A stretch of DNA of 64,000 nucleotides from Candidatus Omnitrophota bacterium (GTDB lineage: Bacteria; Omnitrophota; Gorgyraeia; Zapsychrales; JANLHA01). Of this stretch, positions 49,760 through 61,716 are shown piece by piece. The notes under the pieces are model-generated. The model worked only from the letters and a program-made list of their open reading frames with translations. It did not search any database and was not told the origin of the DNA. Where the stretch lies: contig JACKFJ010000001.1 of NCBI GenBank assembly GCA_020632535.1, positions 154,890 through 218,889 of the forward strand, given 5' to 3'. Made by a program: the position numbers and the translations under genes. Each line of letters begins with the position of its first letter. Position 1 is the stretch's first letter.

Positions 49760-51388
49760 ATGAAAACAAAGCAGGATTTAGGTCTCGAAAAAATCGGTAT
49801 TACCGATTCGCAGGAGTTGTTTTACAATTCTTCGTATGATGAACTCTTTAAGCATGAAATTGAACCTAGCTTGCAGGGTTATGAGCGCGGGTTTGTTACG
49901 GAATCCGGCGCTGTCACTGTCGACACCGGCGAATTTACCGGACGTTCGCCTAAAGATAAATATATTGTTGATGATAGCGTGGATAGTCAGCATGTGTGGT
50001 GGGCGGACGGAAAGGCTTCTGGGTCAGATAATAAGAAAATTACGGTTGAAACGTGGAAACACCTAAAGGAGATTTCGGTTAATCAGCTCAATGGAAAAAA
50101 ACTTTATGTGATTGATGGATTTTGTGGAGCTAATAGAGACACTCGCATGTCTGTTCGTTTGGTTACCGAAGTCGCATGGATGGCGCATTTTTTTAAGAAT
50201 ATGTTTATTCGTCCAACGGAAGATGAGCTTAGTGATTTTAAACCGGATTGGACTATTCTTAATGCTTGTAAAGTGCGCTGTAAGGATTTTGCAAAATATG
50301 GTTTGAATTCAGAAGTCTTTGTCGCGTTTAATATCAAGGAACGTGTGACGGTTATCGGGGGAACGTGGTACGGCGGAGAAATTAAAAAAGGTATTTTTTC
50401 GATTATGAATTATTTTTTGCCGCTCAAAGGCATCGGCGCTTTTCACTGTTCAGCGAATATGGGCAAAGATGGGGATACCGCGCTCTTTTTTGGACTTTCG
50501 GGAACAGGGAAAACGACACTGTCAACGGACCCTCATCGTCGGTTAATCGGCGACGATGAACATGGCTGGGATAATGAAGGTGTTTTTAATTTTGAGGGTG
50601 GCTGTTATGCCAAATGTATCGGTTTGACCGCGCAACGTGAGCCAGATATTTTTCGCGCCATTCGTCGAGATGCCCTTTTGGAAAATGTAGATTTTGATAA
50701 AGACGGTCATGTTGATTACAGCTCCAAAGCCAAAACAGAGAATACGCGTGTGTCGTATCCTTTGAATCATATTGATAATATTGTCAAACCAATTTCTAAG
50801 GGCGGACATCCTAAACGGATCATTTATTTAATGGCGGACGCGTATGGAATTCTACCTCCTGTTGCGAAACTTTCCAAAGAGCAGGCGATGTATCATTATT
50901 TAAGCGGATACACCGCCAAAGTTGCCGGCACCGAGCGTGGAGTTATTGAGCCTAAAGCCACATTTTCCGCTTGTTTTGGCAAAGCGTTTTTGACGTTGCA
51001 TCCGACGATGTACGCGGATATTTTAGGTAAAAAGATGCAGGAGCATGAATCGACGGCGTATTTGGTGAATACGGGTTGGATTGGCGGTCAATATGGCGTG
51101 GGAAAGCGAATTTCAATCAAGGATAATCGTTTGTCGATTGATGCGATTCTTGAAGGTTCGCTTGATGAAGGTCCATTTGATATTCTACCGGTTTTTAATT
51201 TGCAAATTCCCCGCGCGGTTAAAGGCATGGACAGCAGTATTTTGAATCCTCGCAATACTTGGGCGAATAAAGAGGAGTATGATGTTCTTTTGCGGAGATT
51301 GGCACAGATGTTTATTGATAATTTTACGAATTTTACAAATACTCCGGCTGGCAAGTCTTTAGCAGAAAACGTTGGCCCGAAACTTTAG
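49760..51388 (+). CDS. pckA: Phosphoenolpyruvate carboxykinase (ATP)
   Basis: [31 protein letters not shown], and NTGWIGG in the C-terminal region. Confidence 0.95.
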
Positions 51389-51402
51389 GATAGGAGTTGA
51401 AT

Positions 51403-52056
51403 ATGGCGAAAATTTCTAAACCGATTTTAACAATTGTGCTAATCGTGTGTTGTGTGGCTTTGCTTGCGGGATTTAAATATTTTCAATCTCAGCGCGCGGC
51501 CGCGAATTTGCAGGCAGCGGCTAAAACTGTTCTTTCTCCTCGAGCCAAGGGAAATCCTAAGGCTGAAATCAAAATACTTGAATTCATTGATTTTCAATGT
51601 CCGGCTTGCGCGTCGGGTGTGAAAGTCATCGCGGAGTACTTGGAAAAGTACCCAGAAAAAGTTTATGTTGAAGTCCGTCATTTTCCGTTAGCGATGCACA
51701 AGCACGGGATTACGAGCGCCCGTTGGGGTGAATGTGCTGCTCGTCAGGATAAATTTTGGCCGTTTCTCGATGGTCTAATCGAACGGCAAAGAGAGTGGAG
51801 TGCTCTTAATGACCCGCTTCCGCCTTTTCGTGACATTGCCACAAAAGCTGGTTTGAATGTTGAGCAAATCAAGGAATGTCTCAATGACACGACCATTGAT
51901 GACGCGATTCAAGCAGATGTGGAGGAGGGGAAAATGCGTAAAGTTGTCTCGACGCCGTCATATTTTGTTAATCATGAAATGTGTGTTGGGGCGAAGTCTT
52001 TGAAAACAAAAGTCGACAACCTTTTAGGGATCAAGGAAGCAGAGGTTAAGCCATGA
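51403..52056 (+). CDS. Membrane-anchored DsbA-family thiol:disulfide oxidoreductase
   Basis: AGGAG lies 6 nt before ATG 51403. N-terminal TM anchor. CxxC in FIDFQCPACASG. Confidence 0.8.
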   Translation: MAKISKPILTIVLIVCCVALLAGFKYFQSQRAAANLQAAAKTVLSPRAKGNPKAEIKILEFIDFQCPACASGVKVIAEYLEKYPEKVYVEVRHFPLAMHKHGITSARWGECAARQDKFWPFLDGLIERQREWSALNDPLPPFRDIATKAGLNVEQIKECLNDTTIDDAIQADVEEGKMRKVVSTPSYFVNHEMCVGAKSLKTKVDNLLGIKEAEVKP

Positions 52057-52532
52057 GCGAAGGTAAGATTTCTAAATTTACTACGTATAAATTTTTAGTT
52101 TTACGGCTTATAATTGGTGGATTTTTTATTGCCGTCGGTTTGGACAAAGTTTTAGAGCCGCATCAGAATTTTCTTTATGTTATTCAGGGGTATCAGATTT
52201 TTCCGGAATTATTGGAAAATATCGCGGCATATGTTTTCCCATGGATTGAGTTGTTTCTGGGGCTGTTTCTCTTTTTGGGATTGTGGCTCAAATGGATATT
52301 AAGAGGTTTTCTCTTGATGATTTCCGCTTTTATTCTTATCATTTCGCAGGCGTTGGTACGCAAACTTCCGATTGAATTTTGTGGTTGCTTTGGAGGACTT
52401 TTTTCGTCGGACATTCATCAGACACTTATTCTTGATGTGTTTTTGTGGCTTTTTGTTTTTCTTATGATGCGTTTTATTGCGCCAACGTCTTTTTTAAGCT
52501 TAGACAAATATTTCTCTCGTCAAGAAAAGTAA
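52053..52532 (+). CDS. MauE/DoxX-like membrane protein
   Basis: ATGA overlap with the dsbA-like gene. Four TM segments. Contains a FCGCFGG motif. Confidence 0.7.
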   Translation: MSEGKISKFTTYKFLVLRLIIGGFFIAVGLDKVLEPHQNFLYVIQGYQIFPELLENIAAYVFPWIELFLGLFLFLGLWLKWILRGFLLMISAFILIISQALVRKLPIEFCGCFGGLFSSDIHQTLILDVFLWLFVFLMMRFIAPTSFLSLDKYFSRQEK

Positions 52533-52535
52533 TCT

Positions 52536-53993
52536 GTGCGTTACTTATTTTTCATTCTTGCCTTCGTGATGACAATGACCCCACTCGGCTTTGCTGATGA
52601 AAATATTAAATTGCCTAATGTCAGCGGCCAATTTTATGCCGGCGACCCGCAGAAATTAGCAGGTGATATCGACGCTTTTCTAAAAGCCGCTACGATTTCA
52701 CCGGTCACGGACAATATTCAAATGATCATTGCCCCGCACGCGGGATATCGTTATTCCGGATCAGTTGCAGGGTATAGCTTTAAGGCCGTTAGCAAAAAGA
52801 GTTTTAAAACTATTATCATTCTTGCTCCCAGTCATTTTTATGGATTTGACGGAGCTTCGATCTGGACGAACGGCGGTTTTAAAACACCTTTAGGTGTCGT
52901 TCCTGTCGATGAAGATTTTGCCAAAGCTTTGAGTCGTGCCGATTCCAAATTTGCTTTTGTCCGTCCGGCTTTTGATAAGGAGCATGCCCTTGAGGTTGAA
53001 ATTCCATTTTTGCAGAAGACATTTCAAGATTTTAAAATTGTGCCTGTGATTTTGGGGCAAATGAGCTTTGATTCCTGCCAAAAATTATCTGACACACTCA
53101 ATAATTTAATCGGAACGCGCCAAGATGTTCTTGTCGTCGTCAGTAGTGATATGTCGCATTATCATGATGATAAAACTGCCCGCATCATGGATTTTGCGGC
53201 ATTCAAATCAATTAAGGATTTGGACGCCAAGGGGTTTTATCAAAAATGTCTTTTGCGCACACAGGAAATGTGCGGTTTTATTCCCGTAACAACCGCTATA
53301 TTGTTAGCTAAGGCGCGTCAGTGGCAAGTGCAGATTTTAAAATATGCCAATTCTGGAGACGTCACCGGGGATCGTTCAAATGTTGTGGGGTATGGTGCTG
53401 TCATGTTTACGCAACAGCCAGCGTCGATTGCTCAGCAAACAGCCCCGTTTAATAGTCAGCAAAAAGAAATATTATTAAATCTCGCTAAAGAAGCGGTTGT
53501 GAGTTTTGTGACAGAGAAGAAAATTGTTGATGTCAAAATAAGCGACAGTCGCTTGGCTGTGCCAGAGGGCGCGTTTGTTTCAATTTATAAAGATGGACAA
53601 TTGCGTGGCTGTATTGGGCATATTGTAAGTCGTGAACCGTTGCAGAAAACAGTTCGCGATATGGCGATTGCCGCGGCGAGTGAAGACCCGCGTTTTCCTG
53701 TTGTGACTTCGGAGGAATTGCCCACTTTGGATTTTGAGGTTTCGGTCTTGTCTCGTCCATGGAAAGTTGCGAATATCGATGATATTCAAATGGGTGTGCA
53801 TGGCGTCATTATCAGTCAGGGAAGAGGCAAGCGAGGTGTTTTTCTTCCGCAAGTGGCGACCGAAACACGCTGGAGCAAAGAAAAGTTTTTGTCGGAGTTG
53901 TGTTCGCAAAAGGCTGGTTTGCCGCCGACATGCTGGAAAGACCCCAAAACGTCGATCGAAATATTTACTGCCGATGTCTTTAAAAACCCGTAA
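52536..53993 (+). CDS. Fusion of Memo-like (AmmeMemoRadiSam protein B type) and AMMECR1 (protein A type) domains
   Basis: N-terminal half: GQFYAGDP, IIAPHAGYRYSG, VSSDMSHYH. C-terminal half: GAFVSIYKDGQLRGCIGHI, GVHGVIISQGRGKRGVFLPQVA. GTG 52536 adds a signal-like MRYLFFILAFVMTMTPLGFA. Internal ATGs at 52569 and 52575 would remove it. Confidence 0.8.
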   Translation: MRYLFFILAFVMTMTPLGFADENIKLPNVSGQFYAGDPQKLAGDIDAFLKAATISPVTDNIQMIIAPHAGYRYSGSVAGYSFKAVSKKSFKTIIILAPSHFYGFDGASIWTNGGFKTPLGVVPVDEDFAKALSRADSKFAFVRPAFDKEHALEVEIPFLQKTFQDFKIVPVILGQMSFDSCQKLSDTLNNLIGTRQDVLVVVSSDMSHYHDDKTARIMDFAAFKSIKDLDAKGFYQKCLLRTQEMCGFIPVTTAILLAKARQWQVQILKYANSGDVTGDRSNVVGYGAVMFTQQPASIAQQTAPFNSQQKEILLNLAKEAVVSFVTEKKIVDVKISDSRLAVPEGAFVSIYKDGQLRGCIGHIVSREPLQKTVRDMAIAAASEDPRFPVVTSEELPTLDFEVSVLSRPWKVANIDDIQMGVHGVIISQGRGKRGVFLPQVATETRWSKEKFLSELCSQKAGLPPTCWKDPKTSIEIFTADVFKNP

Positions 53994-54426
53994 TATTCTT
54001 ATCAGCGTTTTTGTAATTATTTGGATGGTGATTTTTCATTATGAATCCGTCCGTTATTTTTATTTGCAAAATTATTTTCAAAAGCCTTTGCCCAAGCTAA
54101 AATTTCTTTTTCCACCAGCCGGATGGATCATGTTTTATAATGTCGGCGACCGTTTTGGTTATGCTGAGGTTTACGGCATTAAAAATGGGACACCGATTCT
54201 CATTGACCCGCATGATATTATTAAAACTCGCTTTATTGGTTTTGATATGGTGCATCGCAATGTCTTGAGCACGGTTTTAAGACCCGGCGCGCGACAGAGT
54301 TTTTGTAATGTTTTGCAGAAGCAATTTCCAGAATTTGACAAATTTATTGTCACGGCGGTTGAATACCCGTCTTTAACAGAGTCGCGTTATAATCGTCGAC
54401 AGGTTCTGGTTTATCAATGTCCTTAA
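53974..54426 (+). CDS. Hypothetical N-terminally membrane-anchored protein
   Basis: Start trimmed to ATG 53974 (MSLKTRNILISVFVIIWMVIF), overlapping the previous gene by 20 nt. 150 aa. No family recognised. Confidence 0.55.
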   Translation: MSLKTRNILISVFVIIWMVIFHYESVRYFYLQNYFQKPLPKLKFLFPPAGWIMFYNVGDRFGYAEVYGIKNGTPILIDPHDIIKTRFIGFDMVHRNVLSTVLRPGARQSFCNVLQKQFPEFDKFIVTAVEYPSLTESRYNRRQVLVYQCP

Positions 54427-54430
54427 AGTC

Positions 54431-55711
54431 ATGAAAAATCTTTGGTCAAAATTGTTTTTAGAAGAGCGCCCGTCGATTTCTTTGGCTTTCTTTCGCGTGG
54501 CGGTAGCGCTCACGGTGGGAAGCCATGTTCTTCCGACGTTTTTTCCTCTAAGGGAAAATTACCTTTCCGGCGCTTTTAAAGTTCTAAATTCCAATTTTTT
54601 TACGGTTGGTGTTTTAGAACTGGTGCAGCAAAGTCCTGATGCCTTGGTTGTGAGTTTTGTTGCGGTTTTTTGTTTGTCGTGGTTTTTCTTTCTCATCGGA
54701 TATCGTACGCAGTTAAGCTGCATTGTGATGACATTAAGTTGTTATTATTTTTACGCTTTAAACGCTTTTGCTGTTGGAACACTGTCGTGGGATATTCTCC
54801 TTGTGACTTTATTTCTTATGTGCCTTACACCGTATTGTGGCGATTACTTTTCTTTGGATAGTGTTTTGAGGCGTGACGCTTTGGCATTTGAGCGTCGGCG
54901 ACCGTTTTTTATTCAGCGGCTTTTGCAAATGCAGGTAGCCTTTACATACTTTTATACGGGTTTGTATAAGATCACAGCCGACGGTAATTGGCTAAGCGGC
55001 AATCCGATTTATTATTTGCTTCTTACCCCGAGTGCGGGGGTGACAAAGTATTTTCTTTTGCGCGATTTTTTTAGCAGTCACCCACAGCTTTGTTATGTAT
55101 TGGGTGTGATAATTGTTGTGATTGAACTTTTGATGCCTTTTCTTTTGTTTAATCCATCGACACGGGTGACGGCAATTTATTTGGGATTTATTTTTCATTT
55201 AACGCTTATTTTGACATTGGATGTTCCAGCGATTTTCTTTTTTCTGTTTCCGGCACAACTATTGCTTTTTATCGTTCCTGATAAAGTGATCGATTGGATT
55301 AAAGAGAGGCGAGCGATTTTTCATTTGGCTCCGCCAACCAAGGTTGTCTTTGACGGTCATTGTCAATTTTGTTGTGCGAGTGTCGAAATGATCAAGGTCA
55401 TGGATCTTTTTGGTCGATTGACTTTTGTCGATTATCAGACTGTTTTGGACTTTTCAACGTTGCATCGTGATTTGACGAAAAAAAAGGGACACAGCCAATT
55501 GTATTTGATTGATAGTCACGGTGATTTATACGGTGGTTTTTTTGCTTTTCGCCGGATGACACTACTTTTGCCAATGCTTTATCCAACACTTTTACTTGTT
55601 TATTTCCCGGGCGCGAGCATTTTGGGGTCGCTTCTATACCGCTGGGTGGCCCAAAACCGTTATTTATTCCATTCAAATAAAAAGTGTGCGAATAATGCCT
55701 GTTTACGGTAG
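54431..55711 (+). CDS. HTTM-domain membrane protein fused to a DCC/DUF393-type thiol-disulfide oxidoreductase domain
   Basis: N-terminus SLAFFRVAVALTVG and about 8 TM segments typical of HTTM. C-terminus VVFDGHCQFCCASVEMIKVMD typical of DCC1-like proteins. Confidence 0.75.
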   Translation: MKNLWSKLFLEERPSISLAFFRVAVALTVGSHVLPTFFPLRENYLSGAFKVLNSNFFTVGVLELVQQSPDALVVSFVAVFCLSWFFFLIGYRTQLSCIVMTLSCYYFYALNAFAVGTLSWDILLVTLFLMCLTPYCGDYFSLDSVLRRDALAFERRRPFFIQRLLQMQVAFTYFYTGLYKITADGNWLSGNPIYYLLLTPSAGVTKYFLLRDFFSSHPQLCYVLGVIIVVIELLMPFLLFNPSTRVTAIYLGFIFHLTLILTLDVPAIFFFLFPAQLLLFIVPDKVIDWIKERRAIFHLAPPTKVVFDGHCQFCCASVEMIKVMDLFGRLTFVDYQTVLDFSTLHRDLTKKKGHSQLYLIDSHGDLYGGFFAFRRMTLLLPMLYPTLLLVYFPGASILGSLLYRWVAQNRYLFHSNKKCANNACLR

Positions 55712-55754
55712 AATAGTTTCCAGTTTGGAGCAAAAGCAAAAGGAATTACTAAAT

Positions 55755-56336
55755 ATGTTGAGCCAGATTATAAAAATCTCATTTGTCTTCGTCATCGGAT
55801 TTCTGGGTACATTTTCTTCCGTATTTGCGCAGAGCAAGGCGCGTATGGATGAGGCGGCGCATTATTATGATGATTTGACAGGAGAAGGCAGTCTGAATGA
55901 TGTTAAAACAAAGTGGAAGCTTGATATCCAGCGTTTGCGCGAAGCGATTTTAAAGTCACATGAATCTTTGCAGCGTGATGATTCTGATCTGGCTAAGGCC
56001 GTGATTGATCATAAAGTCAAAATTGCTCGTGAAAGAGAATTTTTAAGTGGTGAGTTTGATGCCGGTGTAGCGGATCTTTATCAGAAGGCTGTTGGGGAAT
56101 ATCAACAAAAACAGTTTATGGTCAGTTTGTCGACATTTGAAGAGGTTGAGAGTCTTTCTCCAGATTTTAAAGACACACGTAAATATTTGCAAAAGTTAAC
56201 AAAGATGCAATTGAAAACAAAAGTCAAAGCGGCTTCGGATCAACAGATAAAAAAGAGCGAAGAAAACCGCGACGCGCGTATTGACAATGCCCTCAAGAAT
56301 GTGCAATATGGCGATTTGCAAGGAGATCGAAAATGA
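55755..56336 (+). CDS. Hypothetical secreted coiled-coil protein
   Basis: Start trimmed to MLSQIIKISFVFVIGFLGTFSSVFAQ. An alternative ATG lies at 55695. Confidence 0.5.
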   Translation: MLSQIIKISFVFVIGFLGTFSSVFAQSKARMDEAAHYYDDLTGEGSLNDVKTKWKLDIQRLREAILKSHESLQRDDSDLAKAVIDHKVKIAREREFLSGEFDAGVADLYQKAVGEYQQKQFMVSLSTFEEVESLSPDFKDTRKYLQKLTKMQLKTKVKAASDQQIKKSEENRDARIDNALKNVQYGDLQGDRK

Positions 56337-56707
56337 AAAGAATAGCATTGGTTTTTGTGTTCTTTGTGTCATTTGCATTCAGTGCCAATGCCACGCCTCC
56401 CCGCGATTTAAAGCTGCAATATGACCCGATGAGTCAGAATTTAATGATTAGTATGAAGCATCCAACGATTGAAGTTCGCGAGCATTATATACGGACTATT
56501 ATTGTTACTCACAATGATGATGAGCCAAAAACATACCGATTTACATTTCAAAAGTCAGCTTCGGAAGTTGAAGCGATTGTCCCGATTGGAGTATTGCAGT
56601 TTGGTGATAAAGTTCATGTGAAAGCGATGTGCAAACTTGGAGGAAGTGCTGAAGCTGAACTTGTGATGTCGCCTAGTGATGTACAACAATCTGAAGAAAT
56701 GAAATAA
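56333..56707 (+). CDS. Hypothetical small secreted protein
   Basis: ATGA overlap with the upstream ORF. Signal peptide ends SANAT. 124 aa. Confidence 0.55.
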   Translation: MKRIALVFVFFVSFAFSANATPPRDLKLQYDPMSQNLMISMKHPTIEVREHYIRTIIVTHNDDEPKTYRFTFQKSASEVEAIVPIGVLQFGDKVHVKAMCKLGGSAEAELVMSPSDVQQSEEMK

Positions 56708-56713
56708 TCTCGG

Positions 56714-58777
56714 ATGAACTCGCAACATCCAAATCGTTTGGGTCTTGAAAAAAGTCCGTATCTTCTGCAGCATGCTTATAATCCCGTCGAATGGTATCCT
56801 TGGGGTCCAGAAGCCTTTGCCAAAGCCCAAAAAGAAAACAAACCTATTTTTTTATCCATCGGTTATTCAACCTGTCACTGGTGTCATGTGATGGAGCATG
56901 AAAGCTTTGAAGATGAAGAAACCGCGCAATTGCTCAATGATCACTTTGTCGCCATTAAGGTTGACCGTGAAGAGCGTCCTGATATTGATAGCATTTATAT
57001 GAGTTTTGTTACTGCGACGACGGGTAGTGGAGGTTGGCCTTTGTCTGTTTTTTTAACGCCGCAAACCAAGCCATTTTATGGGGGAACCTATTTTCCACCG
57101 GAAGCCCGCTTTGGGTCGCCCGGATTTAAAGATTTGTTGTGGTCGGTGCATTCGAGTTGGCTCAAACAAGAAGATAAAGTTCGTGAATCTGGTGATCAGA
57201 TGGTTGAATCTTTGTCGCAGCGCGTCAAGGCAAAATCTCCGTCAGGTCAAATTTCTACAAAGGAAATATTAACCAAGGCTTTTGGTCAATTAGATCAAAA
57301 CTTTGATGTCAAGAATGGTGGCTTTGGTCATTCTCCCAAATTTCCAATGGGACACACACTCAGTTTTCTTTTGCGGTATTGGAAAAACAATGATGATAAA
57401 AATGCTTTGGGAATTGTTGAGAAAACTTTGATCGCCATGGCGCAAGGCGGCATCAATGATCAGCTTGGCGGTGGTTTTCATCGTTATGCGACTGATGCGC
57501 ATTGGCAGGTTCCGCATTTTGAAAAAATGCTTTATGATCAGGCGCTTTTGACAAAGATTTATCTTGAGGCTTATGCCGCGACGGGGAAGAAAATTTATGC
57601 TGACACCGCTAGGGAAACTTTGGATTATGTTTTAAGAGACATGCGTGACAGCAATGGCGGATTTTATTCTGCTGAAGACGCGGATAGTCTTGAGCCTGAC
57701 GCGGACATTGAGGCCGAAAAGAAAGAGGGCGCGTTTTATCTTTGGGGTGAAGACGAATTAAGAAATATTCTCACAGCGGATGAGTTTGTGGTGATAAATG
57801 TGTATTTTGGTATCGCGAAAAATGGTAATGCCGAGTTTGATCCGCATGGTGAATTTGTCGGAAAAAATATTTTGCACATGAAGCATTCTCTGGATGAGAC
57901 TGCGGCGTATTGCAAGAAATCAATCGAAGATGTTAGCAGTCTTATCGCGTCCGCAAAAGTGAAGTTATTTGAACATCGCGCAAAAAGGCCGCGTCCGCAT
58001 TTGGATGACAAAATTTTAGTTGATTGGAATGGGTTAATGATTTCCAGTTTAGCGATGGCGGGATGTATTCTCAAAGACGAACGGTATTTGCAGGCAGCGG
58101 AAGCGGCCGCGCAGTTTATTTTGCGGCAATTAAAGAATGATCAAGGACGACTTTTACATCGTTACCGTGATCATGAAGCGGGAATCTTGGCGGGACTGGA
58201 AGATTATGTTTTTTTGATCGCTGGATTGTTGGATCTTTATGAAAATTCTTTTAATCAAAATTATTTTGATGAAGCATTGCGGCTTAATAGGGAGATGGTG
58301 GATTTATTTTGGGATAAAGAACATGGCGGCCTTTTTTTGACACCCAAAGATGGAGAACAATTGATTCTGCGACCCAAGGAAGTTTATGACGGAGCTGTGC
58401 CCTCCGGCAATTCACTGGCGGCTCTGAATTCTTTACGAATCTATCACTTTAATTTTACTGAAAATGATTTGAAAAACAGTGAAGCGATCTTTAAAGTGTT
58501 TCATGATGAAGTTATGGCACATCCTAGCGCTTTTACGCAAATGATGATGGCTTTGCAGTTTTATTTTGGTCCGGTTAAGGACATTGTTTTGGAAGGTGAT
58601 ATTAAGCATGGTGCAGGGCGGGAGATGCTTGATCTGATTCAAGCGGTATGGCTCCCGCAAAAAACATTGACTGTTAAGGAAAGTGAAAATACGCAAGCTG
58701 TTGTGCGTGTCTGTGAGAATCAGGTGTGTCATCAGCCGGTGAACAATATCAAAGCATTGCAGCAAATTTTAAAATAA
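56714..58777 (+). CDS. Thioredoxin-domain protein of the YyaL/DUF255 (SPATA20-like) family
   Basis: [25 protein letters not shown] and [16 protein letters not shown], followed by an (alpha/alpha)6-like C-terminal region. 687 aa. Confidence 0.85.
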
Positions 58778-59862
58778 TGAAAAAATTAATATTTTTAATT
58801 GTGATGTTTTGTCTTCCGTTAAGTATATCTTGCGCGGAAGCAGAAGTCGGAGTATCTCCGGATTCTATTGCCGTTCCTGTAGGTAAAGGACAGAGACTTT
58901 TGGGTGTGGAGATTAATCCTGCAAATGACGGTAATTACGATCAGGCTTTTGCTAAGGCTAGGGAAGCTGGGTGTGAAGTTGTGTCCTTGTCGATCAATTG
59001 GGATGATTTTGAAAAGGCTCCCGGCAAGTTCGGGATGGAGCCAAATTTTTTGCAGATTGCTAATCAGTACTATCCGTCTAAAAAAACAAAGATCAGTTTG
59101 GTTATCCGTCCCCTAGATACTAATGGTCGGCATTTTCCTAAAGATTTGGTTGGAAAATCTTTTAGTGATCCTCAAGTTACTAGTCGCTTTGCCGCATTTT
59201 TGGATTATGTTTTTTCTCAGGTTAAGGATGTGGATATTATTGGAGTTTCGATCGGTAATGAAATTGATGTGCCTTTGGCAAAGAATATTGGGGAATGGAT
59301 CGAATACGGAAAGTTCTTTTATATGGCTGTAGTTCATATCAAGCAGAAATATCCGCATTTAAAAGTAGGGACTACGACAACGATGTATGGCATTACCAAG
59401 CAGTATGTTGAGGAAATAAAAGCGGTGAATTCGGTGGCTGATGTGATTTATGTGACATATTATCCTATGAGTGAGGATTTTTTTGTGAAAGACCCAAAGA
59501 TTATGACAAAGGAAATAGGAGCGCTGGTGGCATTGTATCCGAAAAAACTGATTTATATTGGGGAGATTGGATATCCTTCCAGTCCTGTTTTAAAGAGCTC
59601 ATTATTAAAGCAACAAGAATTTATTCGTCAGTCTTTTTTAGCATGGGATCGCTATGCTGCGAATATTTCGTATATGTCTTTTTTGTGGCTGCATGATCCA
59701 ACGGTCACGCAAGTGCAATATTTTAAAAAGTACTATGGGATAAGTGATAAAAATTTTGTCGCGTATCTTGCAACGTTGGGTTTAAGGCAAGGGGAGGGCG
59801 CAGGTACGGATAAGCCCGCATTTGACACGTTTAAGCAAGAGGCAAAGGCACGTGGGTGGTAA
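58777..59862 (+). CDS. Secreted protein with clan GH-A-like (beta/alpha)8 glycoside-hydrolase motifs
   Basis: TAATG overlap. Signal peptide [30 protein letters not shown] (acid/base NE) and IYIGEIGYPS (nucleophile E candidate). The family is not identified. Confidence 0.6.
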   Translation: MKKLIFLIVMFCLPLSISCAEAEVGVSPDSIAVPVGKGQRLLGVEINPANDGNYDQAFAKAREAGCEVVSLSINWDDFEKAPGKFGMEPNFLQIANQYYPSKKTKISLVIRPLDTNGRHFPKDLVGKSFSDPQVTSRFAAFLDYVFSQVKDVDIIGVSIGNEIDVPLAKNIGEWIEYGKFFYMAVVHIKQKYPHLKVGTTTTMYGITKQYVEEIKAVNSVADVIYVTYYPMSEDFFVKDPKIMTKEIGALVALYPKKLIYIGEIGYPSSPVLKSSLLKQQEFIRQSFLAWDRYAANISYMSFLWLHDPTVTQVQYFKKYYGISDKNFVAYLATLGLRQGEGAGTDKPAFDTFKQEAKARGW

Positions 59863-59895
59863 AAACGTATTGAAAGATCATCAAAGGAGAAGCAA

Positions 59896-61716
59896 ATGAA
59901 ATTTTTAAAGATTCTTTTTATTAGCACATTTGTGCTGATTGTTTTGGCTTTTGTTGGCACATATATTTTCGTAAAGAATTTTGATATTAACAAGCATAAG
60001 GACATGCTCGCGCTTGAAATTGGTAAACAACTCGGCCGAAATGTCGAAATTGCCAGTATGGATCTTAATGTGTCTATTACCAACGGAATTTACGCGGAAG
60101 TGCGCGGACTTACAATCAGTGAAGACGCGGTTTTTGGCAAAGGTCATTTTGCGACTTTGGGCGCGGCTCAGTTAAATGTCGACGTCATGGCATATTTGTC
60201 AAAACGCGAAATTGTTATTTCGAAAATTATTATCGATGCGTTAAATGTCAATATTATTCGTGATCAAATCGGATCAATCAATGTGCAAAAAATAGGACCG
60301 GTTCCCAGTGACAAGGTTAATACAGCCGCCGCGACGTCCTCTGCGACACCATCGTCGTCGGGACCCGCGCCAGTTATTCCTGATTTTTCCGTCAGAACGA
60401 TTGTGATTTCAAACGGAACGATTTTGTATAAGGACAAAGGACAGAATCCACCGATGCAGATTCCGATTTCACATGTTGATATTGCGATTAAAGATTTTTC
60501 TTTGAGCAAGCCGTTCACATTTGACGGAAAGATTGCCCTTTTTGGCAGTGAAAAGAATGTCGATGTCAGCGGTCAGGCTTCGATCAGTGTCGCAGATCAG
60601 TCGGCCAAGATCACGTCTTTTGTAACGGAAGTTTATTTGGCGAAATTAAAAATTGCCGATCTTGTTAACGCGATCCCGGCTTTAGCTCCGATGGGGTTAA
60701 AAGAGAATCTTGAGGGAAAAGTGACCGTTGAAATTCCGTCATTGAGCGCGGGCGCAAGCGGGTTAGGTTCTCTGGTTTTAAACGGCAAATTGCAAGGCGG
60801 GAAAATCGTTACTTCATTATTACCGGTACCGATTGAAAAAGTTAATGTGGATTTTAGCGCGAATGCTAAGGATTTTAGCGCCAATCAATTTTCGCTTCAG
60901 TTGCGTACGGGAATAGTGAGCGGCAAAGCCATGATTACGGATTATTTATTAAGTCAGGGTTTGATTTTGGATGTAAAAGTCAAAGATATGCCGCTTGCAA
61001 GTCTTGTTTCTAGTTTACCGGCAGGCATGACGTTCGGTGGGTCGATGGAAGCCGACGCGCACGTCACGGGTGAGGGTCTTGCTGACCCCAGTCAATTTTT
61101 AAATTCGCTTAATGGTTCCGGTAAGTTTGATGTCAAAGACGGTAAGCTCGAAAATTTTAATGTCCTTAAAGTTCTATTAAGCCGTATCGAATTTATTCCT
61201 GGCTTGGCCACAATTGTTGAGACGAATATGCCGCAGCAGTATAAGGAAAGTTTTGTTCGTAACGACACCATTTTTCAGAAAATCAATTCGAGTTTACAAA
61301 TTACCGATGGTGTTTTTAATATGCCGGACATGCAAGTTGTGTCGGATCTTTTTGAAGCGGATATGAAAATTTCGGCCAATTCCAAGCTTGTCGGTGCGGT
61401 GGCCGGGCAGGTAAAATTACCTTCGGATCTCTCCGAATATTTGGCTTCAAAAACACAGCCTTTAGGGTACTTGCGAAATAGTGAAGGACGAATTGTGATA
61501 CCATTGACGTCATACGAAGGGCCTTTAACGAGTTTGAAGATTTTACCCGATGTTAAATCATTGGGTAAGGCCGCGCTTGAGGGTGAGGGTCGTAATCAAG
61601 TTAATAAACTGCTTAACAAAGTTCTTAAAACGGATGGTTCAACTTCGGCGGATACAGCGGACGGCGCGCAGCCTGACCAAATCATCAACGGCGTGTTGGA
61701 TAAAATTTTTAAATAA
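59896..61716 (+). CDS. AsmA-family protein
   Basis: N-terminal anchor MKFLKILFISTFVLIVLAFVG. Long beta-rich repetitive body. 606 aa. Confidence 0.7.
   Translation: MKFLKILFISTFVLIVLAFVGTYIFVKNFDINKHKDMLALEIGKQLGRNVEIASMDLNVSITNGIYAEVRGLTISEDAVFGKGHFATLGAAQLNVDVMAYLSKREIVISKIIIDALNVNIIRDQIGSINVQKIGPVPSDKVNTAAATSSATPSSSGPAPVIPDFSVRTIVISNGTILYKDKGQNPPMQIPISHVDIAIKDFSLSKPFTFDGKIALFGSEKNVDVSGQASISVADQSAKITSFVTEVYLAKLKIADLVNAIPALAPMGLKENLEGKVTVEIPSLSAGASGLGSLVLNGKLQGGKIVTSLLPVPIEKVNVDFSANAKDFSANQFSLQLRTGIVSGKAMITDYLLSQGLILDVKVKDMPLASLVSSLPAGMTFGGSMEADAHVTGEGLADPSQFLNSLNGSGKFDVKDGKLENFNVLKVLLSRIEFIPGLATIVETNMPQQYKESFVRNDTIFQKINSSLQITDGVFNMPDMQVVSDLFEADMKISANSKLVGAVAGQVKLPSDLSEYLASKTQPLGYLRNSEGRIVIPLTSYEGPLTSLKILPDVKSLGKAALEGEGRNQVNKLLNKVLKTDGSTSADTADGAQPDQIINGVLDKIFK

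Follow-up and report, generated by a model that had tools for sequence, protein, structure and literature searches.

A predicted Sec-exported AmrB–AmrA fusion protein among envelope thiol-redox genes of an Omnitrophota bacterium

Introduction

Does a bacterial protein that joins the Memo-like and AMMECR1 domains act outside the cytosol, and does it act apart from the radical SAM enzyme with which these domains are known to be encoded? Conservation of MEMO1 and AMMECR1 reaches from archaea to humans, and both are tied to human disease, yet we know of no biochemical function established for either. The bacterial three-gene system, AmmeMemoRadiSam, gives comparative genomics its main way into that function; it comprises an AMMECR1-like protein (A, amrA), a Memo-like protein (B, amrB) and a radical SAM enzyme (amrS). 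Here we analyse a stretch of 64,000 nucleotides (the window), part of a 505,804-bp contig from the metagenome-assembled genome of a Candidatus Omnitrophota bacterium, in which one gene encodes both the B and the A domain and is surrounded by genes for membrane and thiol-redox proteins (Table 1).

Table 1. Features of the fusion gene and its neighbours, in window coordinates.
Feature	Position	Strand	Remarks
DsbA-like thioredoxin-fold protein, membrane-anchored (N-terminal)	51397..52056	+	CPAC at aa 68; 4-nt overlap with next gene
MauE/DoxX-family membrane protein	52053..52532	+	4 TM; stop 3 nt before GTG of fusion gene
Fused amrB-amrA gene (Memo-like + AMMECR1)	52536..53993	+	GTG start; 485 aa; stop included in coordinates
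Predicted Sec/SPase I signal peptide, aa 1-20 (MRYLFFILAFVMTMTPLGFA)	52536..52595	+	cleavage predicted before D21
Memo / AmrB domain, aa 27-291	52614..53408	+	TIGR04336, Pfam Memo, MEMO1 motif alignment
AMMECR1 / AmrA domain, aa 312-482	53469..53981	+	TIGR04335, Pfam AMMECR1, Foldseek
LRGCIG motif, aa 356-361	53601-53618	+	within AMMECR1 domain
Small anchored (N-terminal) protein, 150 aa	53974..54426	+	20-nt overlap with 3' end of fusion gene
HTTM domain (polytopic) + DCC1-like thiol-disulfide oxidoreductase	54431..55711	+	CQFC at aa 311
DUF255/Thioredox_DsbH protein	56714-58777		CHWC; no signal

Results

Domains and conserved residues of the fusion protein

The gene is a genuine Memo-like and AMMECR1 fusion of the AmmeMemoRadiSam family. 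Its first half matched the NCBIfam model for protein B (TIGR04336, AmmeMemoSam_B) with 274.6 bits over essentially the whole model (positions 3–270 of 270), and its second half, which contains the LRGCIG motif, matched the model for protein A (TIGR04335, AmmeMemoSam_A) with 168.7 bits. Both scores exceed the curated cut-offs, 26 and 99 bits respectively, and the B-then-A order that a sequence-only reading had proposed for this gene is thereby established. The Pfam scores were 211 bits for Memo and 177.8 bits for AMMECR1. An AF2 model built from 88 orthologues had a mean pLDDT of 93.8 and was matched by Foldseek to human MEMO1 (3bcz, TM 0.83 on target) and to archaeal AMMECR1-like proteins (1zq7/1vaj, TM 0.77 on target); a solved structure of a Memo–AMMECR1 fusion was not among the Foldseek matches.

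The MEMO1 motifs APHAGY, PSH and SSDxxH aligned with H68, H100 and D205/H208 of the window protein. The equivalents of the MEMO1 metal-site residues H49, H81, D189, H192 and C244 are H68, H100, D205, H208 and C246, the first four being paired by motif alignment and C246 by position only. Among 270 homologues, H68, H100, H150, E153, D205, H208 and C246 of the Memo domain were conserved at about 99% or more. The loop of the AMMECR1 domain was similarly constrained, with L356, R357, G358, C359 and G361 at 99% or above and I360 at 94%, and D384 and R386 of the same domain were invariant in the homologue alignment. Since the Memo metal-site residues and the LRGCIG loop are intact, the two-domain AmrB–AmrA protein looks catalytically intact. 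Some homologues are extra long (P0146, P0242, P0224, P0116 and P0236), and an additional domain in them found no Pfam support, P0146 giving only a weak match to the related LigB family.

The fusion itself is ordinary and already annotated. At E ≤ 1e-20, 7945 proteins matched the window protein; both domains were present in all of the best 120 of these, and the named ones among them are called 'AmmeMemoRadiSam system protein B'. A reading of the fusion as unusual does not hold, as thousands of B–A fusions exist, annotated as amrB and often encoded beside amrS.

The N-terminus and its predicted signal peptide

The GTG start codon lies 3 nt past the TAA that ends the MauE/DoxX gene. Neither candidate start is preceded by a clear Shine–Dalgarno sequence. 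Translation from the GTG gives the N-terminus MRYLFFILAFVMTMTPLGFA followed by DE, just as it had been described, and by heuristic criteria (n-h-c regions, small residues at −3 and −1, and conservation among orthologues) this is a Sec/SPase I signal peptide. Signal calls on the fusion proteins, here and below, were made with our own heuristics and not with a dedicated predictor. Among 88 aligned full-length orthologues, positions 2–3 are mostly K or R and the net charge of the n-region is positive in 78; position −3 is A, S, G, V or T in 86, and position −1 is A, S or G in 82. Identity within the signal region is low, whereas I24, K25, N28 and V29 of the mature N-terminus are invariant. Residues 2–13 are helical in the AF2 model, with a dip in pLDDT at residues 11–20. 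The conservation of −3 and −1 together with the n-, h- and c-regions is what a cleaved Sec signal would show and supports the prediction of one here.

The closest relative, L008 (88% identical), has the same GTG behind the same TAA and an in-frame hydrophobic extension, MLYLSFIFAFLAMMTPAGFA followed by DES, which differs in sequence from that of the window protein and keeps its hydrophobicity. A counterpoint is that the n-region of the window protein has one Arg and that of L008 none. The N-terminus, MRYLFF, with its single Arg and no RRxFLK, holds no Tat motif, and without a Cys in aa 1–30 it holds no lipobox. In related proteins SPI-like and lipobox signals alternate, the lipoboxes being found in distant homologues.

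The best 120 database relatives include 87 with a full n-h-c signal, mostly ATG-started, and 30 short proteins, every one of which starts at a Met within the c-region. The short proteins look like truncated start calls, because they begin within the c-region and keep a remnant of it, such as AFAQ or SFSE. One public entry, MCB9771108.1, is 100% identical to the window protein and 472 aa long; its NCBI start is M14, at the internal ATG 52575, so the signal peptide has been removed from the public annotation. Loss of the signal peptide through the start call, as in this entry, affects 30 of the 120 closest proteins, at a conserved c-region Met.

The alternatives to a cleaved signal are two. A cytosolic protein, started at the internal ATG 52569 or 52575 with the upstream hydrophobic codons untranslated, would agree with the start of MCB9771108.1, with the other internal-Met calls (30/120) and with the retention of M14 in 56 of the 88 orthologues. 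We consider it very improbable: in relatives with short calls the frame ahead of the called start has no stop and encodes hydrophobic residues, these calls still contain the c-region remnant, full ATG-started signals are present in 87/120, and conservation of n/h/c properties is not expected of untranslated DNA. The hydrophobic N-terminus is thus kept by property upstream of the internal Met, not only from the Met onward, and the Sec-type signal suggested earlier for the GTG start is supported, L008 keeping the GTG and a hydrophobic extension and the 88 orthologues keeping the n-h-c features. The other alternative is an uncleaved signal anchor, which would hold the protein at the inner membrane, its two domains facing the periplasm, instead of releasing it in soluble form. 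The h-region is indeed long, its longest uncharged stretch having a median of 18 aa, the distant homologues L053 and L069 have TM-like N-termini with no cleavage motif, and the neighbouring genes all encode membrane proteins. However, small residues at −3 (86/88) and −1 (82/88), with an acidic or polar residue at +1, favour cleavage since a mere anchor would not need them, and the use of lipoboxes in other lineages implies N-terminal processing. An anchor is therefore an unlikely reading, and a cleaved Sec signal is the preferred one.

Predicted export signals among fused homologues

We scored 80 loci from genomes and 80 from metagenomes, drawn from many phyla, within a total count of 167 fusion loci. 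By the heuristic calls, 118 of these encode a fusion with a signal and 36 one without, with 13 unclear. The premise that this system is normally cytosolic fails for the fused bacterial homologues, as SPI-like or lipobox signals are found at 118 of the 154 classifiable loci. An SPI-like or lipobox N-terminus also precedes the conserved VAGxFYP in 121 of 148 best representatives of 50%-identity clusters. These counts support the view that, among fused bacterial homologues in many phyla, predicted export is the rule and not the exception. A full-text search of a paper collection found nothing on exported AmrA/B. A cysteine signature dividing exported from cytosolic forms was looked for and not found.

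The radical SAM partner

The window was then searched for amrS. Across the six frames, open segments of 40 aa or longer hold no CxxxCxxC motif, and the amrS HMM gave no match at E ≤ 10 over the full 64 kb, in agreement with the earlier statement that the window lacks a radical SAM gene. Thus the third gene of the AmmeMemoRadiSam system (TIGR04337) is not in the neighbourhood of the fusion.

A rough neighbour-joining tree of the fusion proteins, without bootstrap, placed the window protein in a monophyletic clade with those of L008, L001, L004, L005, L089, L003 and L009, sister to an amrS-linked group from Omnitrophota and Planctomycetales. A metagenome scan added L090, L091, L092, L093 and L138, giving 12 other clade loci in all. 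None of the 12 has amrS within the flanks examined (up to 10 kb each side); one of them, the L089 contig, is 6862 bp long.

Outside the clade, amrS is often present. In the Omnitrophota loci L011, L014 and L021 it lies beside a fusion that is 42–44% identical to the window protein, and scores 374–391 bits on TIGR04337 (cut-off 220). It is abundant in Omnitrophota, with at least 8000 profile matches, many of them named Omnitrophota. Export does not imply that the partner is lost: 61 of the 118 signal-bearing loci, L011, L014 and L021 among them, carry amrS in the same locus, and export does not explain its absence from the window. Unlinking is common, as 12 of the 33 signal-bearing loci that have 3 kb or more on each side of the fusion lack a nearby amrS.

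Few sequence differences separate the clade proteins from amrS-linked fusions. The most notable is Y212 to D: the residue is Asp212 in the window protein (53169-53171), 4 residues past H208, and Tyr in 87% of amrS-linked fusions. C238 (53247-53249) is present in 84% of close orthologues, compared with 3% of other signal-bearing representatives, and is the sole clade-specific Cys. Asp212 and Cys238 are both clade-specific changes near the Memo metal site.

Gene neighbourhood of the clade

The thiol-redox setting that had been noticed around the gene, with DsbA-like and MauE genes upstream and HTTM-DCC1 and DUF255 genes downstream, is real and is conserved within the clade. The DsbA-like and MauE/DoxX genes are directly upstream of the fusion in L001, L004, L005, L008, L009, L089, L091 and L093, and often overlap it. 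Directly downstream, the 150-aa protein and HTTM-DCC1 are encoded in L001, L004, L005, L008, L091, L092 and L138, with similarities of 1e-51 to 1e-93 for this pair. All clade loci except L003 and L090 have one pair or both, at 47–88% identity; L003 and L090 have neither, and the link is therefore not obligatory. Among the 167 loci, the DsbA/MauE and HTTM-DCC1 neighbours were found in this clade only. The clade has thus exchanged amrS, which elsewhere is often accompanied by a SpeE-like membrane protein (below), for DsbA-like/MauE and HTTM-DCC1 neighbours, and this clade-specific shift is the new element of the locus.

The gaps between successive genes from DsbA-like to HTTM-DCC1 are −4, +3, −20 and +4 nt, which suggests that the genes at 51397-55711 form one transcript. 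They lie within a run of 13 co-directional genes (49760-61716, PEPCK to AsmA, gaps −52 to +46 nt) that encodes mostly envelope proteins with signals or anchors and whose gene order is kept in relatives at 52–88% identity. This synteny reaches the unrelated PEPCK, NUDIX and AsmA genes, and part of the neighbourhood may therefore reflect nothing more than common descent. The 150-aa protein is always followed by HTTM-DCC1, which is weakly similar to SdpB (27.6 bits). An SdpA-like identity of the 150-aa protein itself was considered and is unsupported, the protein having no Pfam or NCBIfam match.

Predicted signals on amrS and a possible fourth component in other lineages

At loci with a signal-bearing fusion, amrS was itself predicted to carry a signal in 38 of 53 evaluable cases (29 Tat-like and 9 Sec- or TM-like, with none in the other 15), compared with 2 of 9 at loci with a signal-less fusion. 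Tat-like was defined by a regular expression for RRxF[LI]K or KRxFLK plus a hydrophobic stretch; the Pfam TAT_signal model matched amrS N-termini only below threshold, in 2 of 10, so the Tat call rests on the motif. Genes for amrS (TIGR04337) with such predicted signals are found in L023 (8680-9930), L025 (1778-3238), L034, L037 (4447-5583), L040 (4657-5898), L057 (4322-5482), L072 (8872-9969), L013 (4067-5146) and L014 (1459-2535), and among the proteins P0271-P0390. Sec-type N-termini, for example MKNLLKLILGLLLLFGLIITCFYLPNITA followed by Q, were seen in 113 of the best 120 matches to an amrS profile made for the most part of Omnitrophota proteins, the named Sec-type matches being Omnitrophota. 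Predicted Tat or Sec signals on amrS in many phyla are surprising and would be unusual for a radical SAM enzyme; a full-text search of the same paper collection found nothing on a Tat-signal radical SAM enzyme.

A polytopic spermidine-synthase-like protein (Pfam Spermine_synth; NCBIfam MFS_SpdSyn) is encoded at 40 of 118 signal-bearing loci, as against 1 of 36 signal-less ones. Examples are L066 (11506-13926), L039 (4694-6823), L037 (1969-4443) and, on the minus strand, L021 (11393-13648), L023 (11475-13808) and L108 (11487-13880), with about 35 others. It was absent from all loci of the window clade that we examined, and the full-text search of that collection found nothing on such a neighbour of amrBA. 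This protein may be a fourth component that accompanies signal-bearing amrBA and amrS. The observations on amrS signals and on this membrane protein may be of greater importance than the window gene.

Discussion

The reading that we prefer, and hold to be probable, is that the window encodes a Sec-exported AmrB–AmrA protein in an envelope operon with thiol-redox genes, separated from amrS and acting on an extracytoplasmic substrate. The DsbA-like and MauE/DoxX genes would be co-transcribed with the fusion, the small anchored protein and HTTM-DCC1. Translation of the fusion would begin at the GTG and be coupled to termination of the MauE gene ahead of it, and Sec export with cleavage after GFA20 would yield a periplasmic mature protein of about 465 aa. 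There, the AmrA/AmrB chemistry would most likely be directed at a substrate outside the cytoplasm, for example a lipid, isoprenoid or protein of the envelope, with the DsbA/MauE pair setting the thiol state of the fusion enzyme or of its substrate; such a redox link between the fusion and its neighbours is what we infer from their arrangement. In the course of its descent, the clade gene would have become separated from amrS and from the membrane spermidine-synthase-like gene, the companions of exported fusions elsewhere. A point against this explanation is that the invariant C246 and C359 would share a compartment with a DsbA-like oxidant.

The principal competing account is that AmmeMemoRadiSam here is an ordinary three-component system with its amrS at another place in the genome, the fusion being exported as in many bacteria, only the linkage being lost and the redox neighbours being bystanders by descent; we would put equal weight on its being right and on its being wrong. 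The abundance of amrS in Omnitrophota (many of the ≥8000 profile matches), its adjacency to the fusion in L011, L014 and L021 of the sister lineages, and the frequency of signal-bearing loci without it (12/33 with ≥3 kb both sides) all fit such an arrangement, as do the unaltered catalytic residues and the extension of clade synteny to unrelated genes. It sits less well, on evidence that is all indirect, with the lack of amrS both in the 64-kb window and in the 12 clade loci (flanks up to 10 kb), with the lack of the spermidine-synthase-like membrane partner throughout the clade, and with the change of Y212, a Tyr conserved in amrS-linked proteins, to D. The chances that amrS is present elsewhere in the source genome are about even.

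A more far-reaching version of our preferred reading, a Sec-exported fusion in a redox operon, is doubtful, though worth stating. It holds that the exported Memo–AMMECR1 enzyme of the clade is independent of a radical SAM partner and belongs to a new envelope redox module (DsbA-like, MauE, fusion, small anchored protein and HTTM-DCC1) acting on a membrane or periplasmic substrate, and that bacterial AmmeMemoRadiSam, its radical SAM enzyme included, is mainly extracytoplasmic. If true, nucleic-acid substrates would be ruled out there, and how an exported radical SAM enzyme obtains SAM and electrons would become a question; Tat/Sec signals on amrS, if confirmed, would be unusual for radical SAM enzymology. 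More generally, the predicted extracytoplasmic location of most fused bacterial forms narrows their possible substrates to molecules of the envelope. With all catalytic residues retained and thiol-redox membrane neighbours in place of amrS, the clade is a natural experiment on what the A and B domains can do alone.

Comparison with known systems

The window system is a clade-specific form of a known, functionally uncharacterised system. With AmmeMemoRadiSam (TIGR04335 amrA, TIGR04336 amrB, TIGR04337 amrS) it shares scores above the A and B cut-offs and the motifs. It differs from the three-gene arrangement in that A and B are fused behind a predicted Sec signal, with no amrS in 64 kb, and in that the fusion is flanked by thiol-redox envelope genes and not by amrS. 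Memo–AMMECR1–radical SAM contexts were reportedly described by Burroughs et al. in 2019 and linked to the modification of nucleotide bases and of aliphatic isoprenoids; of the two, only aliphatic isoprenoid modification would fit a periplasmic location.

Close parallels are the clusters of exported fusion and amrS (L011, L014, L021, L023, L066 and L108 among them) in Omnitrophota, Planctomycetota, Acidobacteriota, Bacteroidota and others, whose signal-bearing fusions belong to the same family as that of the window. In those clusters amrS is adjacent and signal-bearing, often with a spermidine-synthase-like gene, whereas the window has neither. The same B-then-A order is seen in Segatella hominis WP_218456557.1 (491 aa) and Ideonella dechloratans WP_151123310.1 (464 aa), which are 33–35% identical to the window protein, and the fused 'amrB' of S. 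hominis also has a hydrophobic N-terminus. Both of these fusions have amrS directly behind them (in a plasmid collection), unlike that of the window, and neither has DsbA/MauE/HTTM neighbours.

The folds of the window protein are those of human MEMO1 (3bcz, 7kq8, 7l5c) and of archaeal AMMECR1-like proteins (1vaj, 1zq7, 1wsc), at identities of only 23–36%. MEMO1 and the AMMECR1-like proteins are separate polypeptides and cytosolic or nuclear. The upstream neighbours recall MauD/MauE and DsbA/DsbB, in which a thioredoxin-fold CxxC protein is paired with a MauE-family protein as it is beside the fusion. MauD and MauE serve an exported enzyme, in the maturation of methylamine dehydrogenase. The window differs in having no methylamine dehydrogenase genes, and the fusion would, by its adjacency, be the candidate client of the pair.
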